DNA from: an uncultured Actinomycetes bacterium
GTDB lineage: Bacteria; Actinomycetota; Coriobacteriia; Anaerosomatales; PHET01
Direction: 5' to 3'
NCBI GenBank assembly: GCA_947085035.1
Contig: CAMTUW010000018.1
Span: 53,660 to 117,659, forward strand
Length of the DNA: 64,000 nt
Below, one piece after another: positions 36,550-39,966 of this stretch; within the stretch, counting starts at the first letter, position 1, and each line of letters opens with the position of its first letter. The translations under genes were made by a program, and so were the position numbers. Below the pieces are notes generated by a model. That model did not search any database. It saw only the letters and a list, made by a program, of their open reading frames with translations, and was not told the DNA's origin.

Positions 36550-37386
36550 CTACTGGGGAGTCTCGGAACTGACTTCCGGCGCAGGGGTTTCGGTGATCGC
36601 GATCTCGGGAGCCGCTTCTTCGGCTACCGCGGCAGGCTCTTCCCTTCCGAGGACGACAGGCTCGGGCGTATCGGAGGGAACGACCTGTGGCTGCTGTTCG
36701 GCGAGGCCACCGCGTCCGTCGATCACGGCAGCGGCGATGACGTGGCACATGAGGCCAACCGAACGGATCGCGTCGTCGTTGCCAGGGATCACGTAGTCGA
36801 CCTCGTCCGGGTCGGCGTTGGTGTCGACAAGACCGATGATCGGAATACGCAGACGACGCGCCTCTTTGATGGCGATGTCCTCGCGCTTGGTGTCTACGAC
36901 GAAGATCGCGGCCGGAAGGTCGCGCATCTCACGTACACCGTCGAGGTTGGCCTTGAGCTTGCCGAGCTCCTTGCGAAGAAGTATCTGTTCCTTCTTGGGC
37001 AGAGTCGCCATGCGACCATCCGACTCCATGGTCTCAAGCTCTTCCATGCGCTGAACGCGACCGCGCATGGTGACGAAGTTGGTCAGCATGCCACCGAGCC
37101 AGCGATTCGTGACATAGGGCATGCCAGCGCGTCCGGCCTCGGAAATGATGGGCTCCTGCGCCTGCTTCTTGGTGCCAACGAACAGAATCTGCTGGCCGCG
37201 CTGCCCGATGGCGCGTGAGAACTGGTACGCGCGCTCGAGTTCACGGAGTGTGCGCTGGAGGTCGAGGATGTAGATTCCCGAGCGCTCAGTGAAGATGTAG
37301 GGCTTCATCTTCGGGTTCCAGCGCCTGGTCTGGTGTCCGAAATGGACCCCAGCCTCCAACAAGGCCTTAAGGGTGACTACGGGCAT
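36550..37386 (-). CDS. rpsB: 30S ribosomal protein S2 (acidic/Pro-rich C-terminal extension)
   Basis: ORF 36550-37452. Start [27 protein letters not shown] at 37386. Confidence 0.95.
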
Positions 37387-37588: not shown

Positions 37589-38167
37589 TCAGTACTCACG
37601 CGAACACAGGGGGCATACGAAATGGGCGTCGTACCAGCCCTTCTGGGTGGGTTTCGGCAAGAGCTCCAGATGGAGTTCGACCTCACAGATGGGACACCAG
37701 AACCTTCGCGCAAGACCTGCGTCGCGCACGAGCGAATCAGCATCAGCATCGCGATCGCGTACCACTACACGGTATCTTGTAAGACCGACCTCGGCACTGC
37801 CTGTCATTTTGAGAATCCCGTTGATTCGATCGGCGACATCGTTGGGTCGCACTTCATTCTTGATGAGGTAGTCGGTCGCACCGAGATCGAGTGCTCGTTG
37901 CATATCGGCGTCCTGGCCGAGGTTCGAAAGGATCACGACCGGGATACGTGTCAGACGCGGGTCCTTCTTGATGATCTCCAGAATCTCCAGACCGCTCATT
38001 TTCGGCATGATGAGATCAAGAAGGATCAAGTCGGGAGTATCTGTCCGCAGAATCGACAGCGCTTCGAGACCATCCGCTGCGGCGAGTACGCGATAGCCGT
38101 CGTTCGTCAATTTGTCCGAGTACATACGTCGAAGGAGTTCGGTGTCTTCGACAACGAGCACGGTCAT
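37589..38167 (-). CDS. Orphan response-regulator receiver (REC) domain fused to a C-terminal C4 zinc-ribbon-like domain, no recognizable DNA-binding output
   Basis: ORF 37589-38236. Likely ATG at 38167 (GTG at 38173 possible): MTVLVVEDTELL...DLILLDLIMPKMSG...VVILSN...DYLIK, giving acid pocket E7/D8, acceptor D51, S81, K103. C-terminus has WCPIC-x23-CPLC. Confidence 0.8.
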   Translation of the reverse strand: MTVLVVEDTELLRRMYSDKLTNDGYRVLAAADGLEALSILRTDTPDLILLDLIMPKMSGLEILEIIKKDPRLTRIPVVILSNLGQDADMQRALDLGATDYLIKNEVRPNDVADRINGILKMTGSAEVGLTRYRVVVRDRDADADSLVRDAGLARRFWCPICEVELHLELLPKPTQKGWYDAHFVCPLCSREY

Positions 38168-38246
38168 TGCCACGACATGCGCCTTCCCGATTGCGACTGG
38201 ATATATGTAAGCCTTCAGAAGTGAAGTGTATCCCAACTGGCCGTGT

Positions 38247-39026
38247 TCAGAGTGGTGATCGAGCAGCGTGAAGCTTAGCCCGCAATCTCAGTACCGCCTT
38301 AGTGTGCAGCTGGCTCACGCGGGATTCGGTGACACCCAGTACCTGACCGATCTCTTTGAGAGTGAGTCCTTCGTAGTAGTAGAGGGCGATCACTGTTCTC
38401 TCACGCTCTGGAAGCAGTTCAATGGCTTCGGCGAGTATTCCCTTGATCTCAATGCTTTCGAAGAGTGATACCGGGTCGTCTGCGGTATCGTCGGAAATCA
38501 TGCCCACTGCGCTTTGGCGATCATCGCGGTCGCTGCCGACCCACAACTCCTCGAAGCTCACGACCGACGTGTAGCTCAATTTGGACAGGATCGCGTGGAA
38601 CTCCTTGAGAGTGATTCCCATGTGATCGGCGACTTCGGAGTCGGTCGGCACTCGCTTGAACGTGTGCTCGAGCGCGACATAACTCTGCTCGATCTCGCGT
38701 GCTCTGGAACGGACAGAACGAGGAACCCAGTCCATGGCGCGCAGCTCATCGATGATGGCGCCTCGGATGCGCGCGATGGCGTATGTCTCGAACTTGATAG
38801 CGCGGTCGGGATCGTATTTCTCTATGGCGTCGATGAGCCCGAAGATGCCATAACTGATCAGGTCGGCGGTGTCGACGTTTTGCGGAAGACTCGAAGCAAG
38901 TCTGCCTGCGACGTATTTGACCAATGGAGAATAGTTGAGAATCAGTTCATCTCGCGACTCTGCGTCGCCCACGCCCTTGTACCGCGCCCAGAGCGCGGCG
39001 ATATGCGTCCGAGAGTCGGACTTCAT
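38247..39026 (-). CDS. whiG: FliA/WhiG/SigD-family (sigma-28) RNA polymerase sigma factor
   Basis: 259 aa. LILNYSPLVKYVAGR, YGIFGLIDAIEKYD, IKFETYAIARIRGAIIDELRAMDWVPRSVR, region 4.2 ALYYYEGLTLKEIGQVLGVTESRVSQLHTKAV. Closely resembles my recollection of Streptomyces WhiG. Confidence 0.9.
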   Translation of the reverse strand: MKSDSRTHIAALWARYKGVGDAESRDELILNYSPLVKYVAGRLASSLPQNVDTADLISYGIFGLIDAIEKYDPDRAIKFETYAIARIRGAIIDELRAMDWVPRSVRSRAREIEQSYVALEHTFKRVPTDSEVADHMGITLKEFHAILSKLSYTSVVSFEELWVGSDRDDRQSAVGMISDDTADDPVSLFESIEIKGILAEAIELLPERERTVIALYYYEGLTLKEIGQVLGVTESRVSQLHTKAVLRLRAKLHAARSPL

Positions 39027-39054: not shown

Positions 39055-39966
39055 TCATCCTCGCGGATGCGCGCTTCGATGAACCTCTTGCAGACGCTTG
39101 ATGCTCACGTGAGTATAAATCTGGGTGGTCGACAGAGCAACATGCCCTAAGAGCTCTTGGACGCTTCTGAGATCCGCTCCCCCTTCCAGCAGGTGCGTAG
39201 CGAATGTGTGGCGTAGTGCATGAGGAGAATGCGCTGCTGACGCCTCGACCCGACAAAGATACCGCTTGAACATTCGTCGCACACTGTCTTCAGACAAGCG
39301 GCGCCCGCGCTTGGACAGGAATACCGTGTCAGGCGAGTCGTCGCGTGCGAGGAGGGGTCGGGCGCTACCGAGGTAGACGCGAATGAGCTCGCAGGCCAGT
39401 CGATGAGCTGGGACGACGCGCTCTTTCGCGCCCTTCCCCATGACGGTCACTTGGCATTGAGCGAGATCGAGACCGGAAAGCGTCAGCGAGCAGATCTCGC
39501 TCACTCGCAAGCCGGAGGCGTACAGCAACTCGAGAACGGCTCTGTCTCTTGAGCCCAGCGGCGTGGTGATGTCAGGGCTTTCCAGCAGACGTGCGAGGTC
39601 CTCGTTGGGAATTATGCGCGGGAGTGTCGAGGGCGTCTTGGGAGAGGTGATCACCGTGGACGGGTCGGAATCGAGCACTCCTTCCGTCACGAGGAAGGTG
39701 AACAGAGAGCGCACCGCAGACAGGCGGCGGGCGATAGTCGTTCGGGCATAACGGGCGTTGTCGAGTTCAGCGAGGTAGAGCCGCAGTTGGCGATGGGTCA
39801 GATGCAGCGGATCCACACCGATACGCTCAGCCCACTCGAGATAGCGCTGCAGGTCAGCGGAGTATGCGCGAACGGTGTGTCGCGACGCGCCACGTTCGAC
39901 CGACAGGTGTATGAGGAATCGGTCGAGAAGGACCGTTGGGAGCGCATTGTCAGCGGTCACGGGCAT
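39055..39966 (-). CDS. xerC: Tyrosine recombinase XerC/XerD family
   Basis: ORF 39055-40089. Start MPVTADNALPTVLLDRFLIHLSVERGASRHTVRAYSADL at 39966. Catalytic region HALRHTFATHLL...LGHVALSTTQIYTH. Confidence 0.85.
   Translation of the reverse strand: MPVTADNALPTVLLDRFLIHLSVERGASRHTVRAYSADLQRYLEWAERIGVDPLHLTHRQLRLYLAELDNARYARTTIARRLSAVRSLFTFLVTEGVLDSDPSTVITSPKTPSTLPRIIPNEDLARLLESPDITTPLGSRDRAVLELLYASGLRVSEICSLTLSGLDLAQCQVTVMGKGAKERVVPAHRLACELIRVYLGSARPLLARDDSPDTVFLSKRGRRLSEDSVRRMFKRYLCRVEASAAHSPHALRHTFATHLLEGGADLRSVQELLGHVALSTTQIYTHVSIKRLQEVHRSAHPRG

Follow-up and report, generated by a model that had tools for sequence, protein, structure and literature searches.

Among proteins with a receiver domain, several are known to act on sigma factors or on their antagonists, such as RssB, PhyR and HsbR. 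RssB of Escherichia coli, an orphan regulator, binds sigma-S, PhyR of Alphaproteobacteria sequesters the anti-sigma factor NepR, and in the Pseudomonas HptB-HsbR-HsbA-FlgM pathway the receiver-containing HsbR feeds phosphorylation signals into the control of FliA. The switch formed by RsiG, cyclic di-GMP (c-di-GMP) and WhiG is a post-translational control and concerns the same sigma family and the same phylum as the locus described here, and includes non-sporulating unicellular species with a type IV pilus regulon (PMC8325347). In Streptomyces, WhiG is also genetically tied to an orphan response regulator, WhiI, which lacks the key phosphorylation residues and controls gene expression as a heterodimer with the response regulator BldM (PMC12871210, PMC4255298). 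The present contribution concerns a gene, REC_Zn, that follows whiG in the DNA of an uncultured bacterium of the Anaerosomatales (Actinomycetota; Coriobacteriia; lineage PHET01). The analysed stretch, in the following called the window, comprises 64,000 nucleotides of contig CAMTUW010000018.1 (GenBank assembly GCA_947085035.1, positions 53,660 to 117,659 of the forward strand). REC_Zn is a response regulator of a family without earlier description, the output of which is a zinc ribbon. In Anaerosomatales-like Coriobacteriia and their sisters it is present as a single copy without a neighbouring kinase and is the second gene of the whiG operon. We regard the identity of REC_Zn and the structure of its operon as highly secure. 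The gene and its product are composed as follows.

37589..38167, minus strand: REC_Zn gene, coding for a response regulator of 192 aa (stop codon 37589-37591)
37835..38161, minus strand: receiver (REC) domain, residues 3-111 (Pfam PF00072, E = 1.2e-25; codon of D51 at 38015-38017)
37775..37834, minus strand: end of helix alpha5 and flexible linker, residues ~112-131 (assigned by model confidence and homologue variability)
37592..37774, minus strand: zinc-ribbon output domain, residues ~132-192 (strand YRVVV, helix DADSLVRDAGL, two knuckle hairpins)
37685..37696, minus strand: first CxxC knuckle, C158-P-I-C161 (invariant columns in three homologue alignments)
37604..37615, minus strand: second CxxC knuckle, C185-P-L-C188, preceded by H182 (invariant in 27 Coriobacteriia-type homologues)

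The initial annotation had described a complete REC domain, and each of the residues that it named is present in the translation: E7/D8, D51 (in LILLDLIMP), S81 and K103 (in DYLIK), accompanied by Y100. The Pfam Response_reg model matches residues 3-111 with 90.3 bits (cutoff 30.2), and the same six residues E7, D8, D51, S81, Y100 and K103 are invariant or nearly so across 27 homologues. A model calculated with AlphaFold2 (AF2) reached a predicted local distance difference test score (pLDDT) of ~90 over residues 1-110. In a Foldseek comparison the modelled REC domain superposes on RR468, PhoB, Spo0F and CheY with a target-normalised TM-score of ~0.92, RR468 being the best match (E = 1e-12, TM-score 0.92). 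Judged by its sequence, REC_Zn is a genuine and apparently phosphorylatable response regulator. The linker that follows is of variable sequence and length among homologues, and the confidence of the full-length AF2 model falls below a pLDDT of 50 at residues 124-134. No DNA-binding output of the Trans_reg_C, GerE or LytTR type was matched in a Pfam scan of REC_Zn. Response-regulator matches in NCBIfam cover the REC domain only and lie far under the equivalog cutoffs, and the NCBIfam RssB models likewise score through the REC part only.

Close homologues of REC_Zn are numerous (58-82% identity, 191-199 aa, full coverage), and the named ones are from Coriobacteriia or Actinomycetota metagenome-assembled genomes (MAGs); an identical copy of the protein itself (P0001) is present on five public contigs. 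The annotated start of the gene may be wrong. An in-frame GTG at 38171-38173, two codons before the ATG at 38165-38167, is preceded at a distance of 8 nt by the ribosome-binding site (RBS) GGAAGG, and translation from this GTG yields a protein of 194 aa that begins with MAMTVLVVED and has the N-terminus and the length of most homologues. The GTG at 38173 may thus be the true start codon.

The C-terminal part contains two CxxC knuckles, C158/C161 (WCPIC) and C185/C188 (CPLC), with 23 residues between them, as had been noted (WCPIC-x23-CPLC). The accompanying statement that this part has no recognised output domain was borne out by the profile searches, since no Pfam or NCBIfam family scored above its cutoff, with the whole protein and 22 C-terminal domains compared to Pfam. 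Generic zinc-ribbon families (FGT1, CoiA_N, YjdM and Elf1) appeared as sub-threshold fragments of 11-14 residues; these matches are driven by the cysteine pattern and were rejected. Among 27 close homologues the four cysteines, D142, R155, W157, E164, E168 and H182 are invariant, and in 56 diverged copies of the domain only the four cysteines are, one aspartate (of the 'DA' in the helix) being nearly so. The recurrent pattern of the domain is [YF]x[LV]x[IV]-x5-DAxxLxxDxGLxxxFxCPxC-x3-LxLELxP-x6-8-W[FY]xAHFxCPxC-x3-[FY]. An AF2 model of the domain alone, calculated with the family alignment, consists of a short strand, one helix and two beta hairpins that bear the knuckles (pLDDT 94, predicted TM-score 0.78). 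Because the four cysteines are invariant in 56 diverged domains and the model is of such confidence, the Cys4 pattern is not a product of chance.

A profile of the domain alone was searched against 1.84 billion representative proteins and retrieved only 60 proteins or clusters at E <= 1e-3. Nearly all of these have 186-230 aa and carry the domain at their extreme C-terminus, and the domain is therefore essentially confined to fusions with REC; the shorter matches look like fragments or rare stand-alone copies. A word-indexed search with the C-terminal 70 aa alone gave no match, and the query itself was also not retrieved. No paper that describes the architecture of REC_Zn was found in the literature on REC domains with a zinc-ribbon output.

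Comparison of structures gave little. The best Foldseek match of the domain-only model in the Protein Data Bank had E = 0.9 and none was significant, and the full-length model matched through REC only. The only profile link to a solved structure is chain 6zxw_H (40 residues, E = 4.9e-5), which is annotated as an uncharacterised protein and which we take to be an archaeal Trm112-like zinc knuckle. This match supports a putative zinc-knuckle topology of helix, CPxC, hairpin and CxxC. Trm112 is a protein-binding module, and zinc knuckles of the Trm112/YcaR type resemble the ribbon of REC_Zn in the succession of a hydrophobic helix, CPxC, a beta hairpin, CxxC and an aromatic residue. However, REC_Zn ends right after the second knuckle and lacks the strand that Trm112 pairs to methyltransferases, Pfam Trm112p was not among the reported matches, and Foldseek gave no significant match; membership in the Trm112 family is therefore not established. 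Another small zinc-binding domain of uncharacterised function that is fused to REC, in type IV pilus loci, is TackOD1 (PMC5847659). It differs from the ribbon of REC_Zn by its 11 cysteines (five CxxC and one HxxC) and its mostly archaeal distribution (PMC5847659), whereas the REC_Zn domain has a single Cys4 site and another sequence pattern. With 10 K+R and 11 D+E the ribbon is about neutral to slightly acidic, which would be atypical for a DNA binder. Binding of c-di-GMP by the ribbon was considered and set aside: an RxxD motif is present in REC_Zn but, by eye, not conserved family-wide, and a PilZ signature is absent.

Beyond the close relatives, proteins labelled Candidatus Nealsonbacteria (Candidate Phyla Radiation, CPR) and Chloroflexota came up in a search with a profile built from distant members. 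In their surroundings the family is accompanied by kinases. One distant locus encodes a CHASE-PAS kinase and a stand-alone REC before REC_Zn, another a dCache-PAS kinase, REC-GGDEF, a REC-kinase, REC_Zn and then PilZ, and a third a PAS kinase followed by REC_Zn. A metagenome survey by means of the ribbon alone, with a query alignment of six sequences, yielded 63 loci, 60 of them with an identifiable REC_Zn. Where at least 900 nt of upstream sequence were available (34 loci), a kinase gene lies directly upstream on the same strand in 21 and nearby in 26. On account of these numbers the REC_Zn family is a working two-component output, and family-wide REC_Zn typically serves an adjacent PAS histidine kinase as its cognate regulator. 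One third of the metagenome loci (20/60) contain a tandem pair of REC_Zn genes, which suggests pairs of paralogues, possibly for heterodimers or branched signalling. Such tandems were noted in L075, L076, L081, L089-L092, L094, L100, L102, L104 and L110-L115, often after one PAS kinase.

Some members have other neighbours. The intermediate member P0125 is the last gene of a chemotaxis-like operon (MCP-CheW-CheY-CheB-CheA-CheC-CheD-GAF-GGDEF-REC_Zn) and overlaps the cyclase gene by 29 nt, and the intermediate member P0128 comes after the gene of a PAS-HD-GYP protein. Neighbours of the GGDEF, HD-GYP and PilZ types hint that some of the family is connected with c-di-GMP and with signalling for surface behaviour. 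Such arrangements are seen in L006 (390-8612; a complete Che-like operon that closes with a GAF-GGDEF gene and then REC_Zn), L060 (3652-6985; REC_Zn between a REC-GGDEF gene and a PilZ gene), L084 (768-1028; REC_Zn before a PilZ gene) and L131 (2-895; REC_Zn after a PAS-HD-GYP gene). Clustering of 436 open reading frames (ORFs) that neighbour distant members revealed no recurrent partner beyond kinases and paralogues.

The situation in the window is of another kind, as can be seen from the features that surround REC_Zn.

38247..39026, minus strand: whiG, sigma factor of the sigma-28/WhiG family, 259 aa, first gene of the pair (NCBIfam WhiG equivalog)
38168..38246, minus strand: spacer of 79 nt between whiG and REC_Zn (12-40 nt with RBS in most related species)
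39055..39960, minus strand: gene of a XerC-type tyrosine recombinase, 28 nt upstream of whiG, conserved synteny anchor
36550..37386, minus strand: rpsB (ribosomal protein S2), ~200 nt after REC_Zn, downstream synteny anchor

The adjoining gene had been assigned to the WhiG type, and its product indeed scores 376.7 bits on the NCBIfam WhiG equivalog (cutoff 343) at a distance of 79 nt from REC_Zn. It had also been noted that no histidine kinase is encoded in the 64 kb. This agrees with our phmmer searches of all window ORFs, in which four histidine-kinase cores and GGDEF, PilZ and Che queries matched nothing except the REC domain of REC_Zn. The gene order of the window is that of a housekeeping stretch (rpsP-rimM-trmD-rplS-rnhB-comM-dprA-trmFO-xerC-whiG-REC_Zn-rpsB-tsf-pyrH-frr-uppS-cdsA-dxr-rseP). 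The window has a GC content of 62% and holds no tRNA gene and no Rfam family at the gathering threshold; a ribosomal-protein leader was not detected in the region upstream of rpsB, despite the ~200-nt spacer after REC_Zn.

For a survey of close relatives one genome per GTDB species was taken; 50 loci were returned, fetched with 6 kb on either side and searched with six window proteins. All 50, among them Anaerosomatales and strain EMTCatB1, are from environmental MAGs of Coriobacteriia or 'Actinobacteria'. The labels Eggerthella, Collinsella, Atopobium and Olsenella do not occur; a single MAG is labelled Slackia sp., which we suspect to be a mis-assignment. Wherever a locus has enough sequence, it shows the same order trmFO-xerC-whiG-REC_Zn-rpsB-tsf. 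The pairing of whiG with REC_Zn was found in every Coriobacteriia-type relative with upstream sequence, that is in ~47 species-level genomes and in three more divergent representatives. Two of these represent divergent clusters: P0123, in which a partial WhiG C-terminus lies 21 nt upstream of REC_Zn, and P0124. The third, P0127, belongs to a sister lineage that has kept the pairing with a sigma factor of 69% and a REC_Zn of only 44% identity. In most species the distance from the whiG stop to the REC_Zn start is 12-40 nt and holds just a Shine-Dalgarno sequence, the 79 nt of the window being at the long end. Because of these short gaps with RBS, whiG and REC_Zn almost certainly form an operon and are co-transcribed. 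The spacer of the window contains no promoter-like or terminator-like site on the minus strand, and a scan around the operon was uninformative. No kinase turned up within 6 kb of the ~50 orthologues, which were queried with the six window proteins and not by a kinase search.

In a neighbour-joining tree of 80 family members the whiG-linked proteins form one clade without intruders, to which P0127 is sister. The single clade indicates that the pairing with whiG arose once and has been kept since. Ribosomal protein S2 has 364 aa in the divergent whiG-linked locus L127 (937-2676) as compared to 278 aa in the window, and elongation factor Ts has ~202-205 aa in L127 and L132 (2706-4310) as compared to 297 aa. 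These differences in size show the phylogenetic depth of the conserved pairing. The initial annotation had named the conservation of the sigma pairing in relatives as a test of its hypothesis; the pairing turned out to be invariant in Coriobacteriia-type genomes and to end there, since a search with WhiG as query found a sigma gene in none of the 60 metagenome loci.

The chromosomal block itself is old. In Bacillus subtilis, trmFO and xerC are followed by the fla/che operon with cheC-cheD-sigD-swrB at its end and then by rpsB-tsf-pyrH-frr. The window order between 33400 and 44000, dprA-trmFO-xerC-whiG-[REC_Zn]-rpsB-tsf-pyrH-frr-uppS-cdsA-dxr-rseP, mirrors this fla/che region between xerC and rpsB. 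Flagellar genes appear to have been lost from the xerC-rpsB block, with the sigma gene left in place, and the whiG-REC_Zn pair sits where the tail of the ancestral fla/che operon was, a tail which the context of P0125 resembles. A local synteny of whiG genes that is partly retained in B. subtilis has been described by Chandra and Chater (PMC4255298).

How does REC_Zn compare with known regulators of such sigma factors? The window WhiG keeps the K-x3-G-R and L-x2-Y-E-x-L (sigma-4) residues that are used in the RsiG switch, and its orthologues (L007-L056) keep VKYVAGR in at least 41 of 47 and xLYYYEGL in all 47 cases. By motif spacing and by comparison with the Streptomyces sequence, these motifs presumably correspond to the contact residues of the WhiG2 clade. 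In that clade the contacts to c-di-GMP and RsiG are K57/G61/R62 and L236/Y239/E240/L242 (PMC12871210). REC_Zn is unlike RsiG, a helical coiled coil with ExxxSxxRxxxQxxxD motifs and without a receiver domain, in that it lacks this motif, has a beta-ribbon fold in the model and would receive phosphorylation, not c-di-GMP, as its input. With FlgM it would share the role of a negative regulator of a FliA/WhiG-type sigma factor; however, FlgM is unstructured or helical and is exported through the flagellum, whereas the bacteria considered here are non-motile and lack a flagellum (PMC9686372). RssB and PhyR are similar as receiver proteins with a protein-binding output that acts at the level of sigma and not on DNA, but their outputs are PP2C-like (RssB) or sigma-like (PhyR) and not a zinc ribbon, and neither gene is known to share an operon with that of its sigma factor. 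WhiI is a target of WhiG and not an operon partner, and in contrast to it REC_Zn has intact acceptor residues and no helix-turn-helix.

The initial annotation had already proposed that REC_Zn is a phosphorylation-controlled partner of the adjacent sigma factor, acting as an anti-sigma or RNA polymerase-binding factor; this idea is partly supported and stays plausible. Our assumptions on the mode of action are the following. A kinase encoded elsewhere would phosphorylate D51, and phosphorylation would then change how far the zinc ribbon at the end of its flexible linker is exposed, or in what oligomeric state it is present. The ribbon is small, about neutral and dissimilar to DNA-binding domains, and therefore probably binds a protein rather than DNA. 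Its likeliest partner in this lineage would be the co-expressed sigma-WhiG or its RNA polymerase holoenzyme, and REC_Zn would tune the WhiG regulon in bacteria without flagella or spores. The order's cultured members are rods that neither move nor sporulate and that are covered with pili-like appendages (PMC9686372), and WhiG of Rubrobacter controls type IV pilus genes and dgc/pde genes (PMC8325347). By analogy with Rubrobacter the regulon may span pili, surface functions and c-di-GMP genes, and a role of REC_Zn in the tuning of surface appendages is a reasonable guess. The best explanation as a whole is a family of kinase-coupled zinc-ribbon regulators, a member of which belongs to the whiG operon in one lineage and would be a partner of WhiG or RNA polymerase; we give this explanation somewhat less than an even chance. 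The proposition that the partner is sigma-WhiG or RNA polymerase is, taken for itself, tentative and rather doubtful. The most far-reaching form, in which REC_Zn is a phosphorylation-gated partner of sigma-WhiG (anti-sigma factor or co-factor of sigma and RNA polymerase) that does the work of FlgM and RsiG, or adds to it, in Coriobacteriia without flagella, and in which the zinc ribbon is a new output class that binds the transcription machinery and not DNA, appears unlikely to us.

Several results weigh against a partnership with WhiG. The FlgM domain (PF04316) gave no match at E <= 1 in Pfam scans of whole REC_Zn and of its C-terminal part, the RsiG motif E(x)3S(x)2R(x)3Q(x)3D is absent from REC_Zn and from every window ORF, and the motif HxxxCxxC of ZAS (zinc-binding anti-sigma) proteins is absent from REC_Zn, which has HxxCxxC only in a strand-rich domain; nor did REC_Zn match Pfam families of the RsrA or ChrR type. 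Rate covariation between REC_Zn and WhiG, in a crude test with 33 species, amounted to r = 0.14 and was below that of several unrelated pairs. A scan of the window for sigma-28 promoters (TAAA-N14-17-GCCGATAA, at most two mismatches) gave three matches as compared to 4.2 expected from shuffles, and in 51 orthologous loci the same type of scan revealed no positionally conserved site before whiG or REC_Zn. Because a sigma-70-family gene, searched with WhiG as query, was found in 0/60 metagenome REC_Zn loci, sigma binding is not a generic function of the family, except if it is a general component of RNA polymerase that is targeted. The contact residues that WhiG has kept indicate that a conventional RsiG may be encoded elsewhere in these genomes. 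In Streptomyces, too, rsiG is not known to lie beside whiG, and for this reason the lack of RsiG or FlgM in the window is uninformative: the initial annotation was right that no such partner is visible, in so far as the RsiG motif occurs in no window ORF, but the argument built on it carries little weight. Finally, the conserved adjacency to whiG is weak evidence of a functional pairing because it has a single origin and lies within an ancient conserved block. The tight spacing with nothing but an RBS, kept through deep divergence, is stronger evidence, namely for selected co-expression.

The same block can be read differently, with REC_Zn as a WhiG-independent, phospho-switchable adaptor, e.g. 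for c-di-GMP turnover and effectors or for the pilus and surface machinery. REC_Zn would then owe its place after whiG to the end of an ancestral fla/che operon and would have stayed there, as a relic, because rearrangements of this block are rare. This is possible, though on the doubtful side. P0125 at the end of its chemotaxis-like operon, in overlap with the cyclase gene, would fit well, as would the members that adjoin REC-GGDEF and PilZ or PAS-HD-GYP, the absence of sigma genes beside family members elsewhere, the covariation with WhiG that is not elevated and the age of the whiG-region synteny, partly common to B. subtilis (PMC4255298). Neglect is however difficult to reconcile with very short, RBS-bearing spacers that persisted through deep divergence and argue for selected co-expression, c-di-GMP neighbours occur in only ~4 loci, and the 436 clustered neighbour ORFs gave no conserved non-kinase neighbour. 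If the ribbon were instead a sequence-specific DNA- or RNA-binding module, REC_Zn would be a transcription factor with its own regulon, co-expressed with WhiG and comparable to WhiI. Most two-gene operons of a kinase and a regulator encode DNA-binding regulators and the family has the same layout, its tandem paralogues (20/60 loci) are expected of dimerising factors, zinc ribbons are generally able to bind nucleic acids, and Streptomyces has an orphan response regulator that is switched on directly by WhiG (PMC12871210). A tiny domain that is roughly neutral to slightly acidic, that has no conserved basic patch (only the four cysteines and, nearly, one aspartate being invariant family-wide) and that matches no DNA-binding family or fold nevertheless makes this quite unlikely. 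We see little probability in the idea that the ribbon is a structural or dimerisation cap only and that REC_Zn functions as a single-domain receiver, i.e. as a phosphate sink or phosphorelay shuttle for a distant kinase. Extra stand-alone REC proteins or hybrid kinases beside REC_Zn in some operons do suggest branched phosphorelays, and the domain is without recognisable effector features; but in the Coriobacteriia clade the ribbon surface is strongly conserved (D142, R155, W157, E164, E168 and H182 invariant), and the almost exclusive association of the domain with REC suggests a specific partner-binding role.

The control of sigma-28/WhiG in the absence of flagella is an active question in Actinomycetota, for which only the c-di-GMP/RsiG route is known, and the published surveys of RsiG/WhiG control did not cover the Coriobacteriia (PMC12871210, PMC8325347). 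Throughout an entire order of subsurface Actinobacteria a receiver protein is fixed in the operon of whiG, which makes it a concrete and testable candidate for a second input, namely phosphorylation. The order has been brought into culture with Anaerosoma tenue and Parvivirga hydrogeniphila, and experiments may therefore be feasible. The ribbon is at the same time an unannotated output domain of response regulators that occurs in Coriobacteriia, in genomes labelled Candidatus Nealsonbacteria (CPR) and Chloroflexota and on many unassigned metagenome contigs, and it merits a domain model and a structure of its own. If REC_Zn is unrelated to WhiG, it is an ordinary two-component regulator with an unusual tail. 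If the ribbon does bind the transcription machinery, its occurrence in CPR bacteria with reduced genomes would be explained as well.

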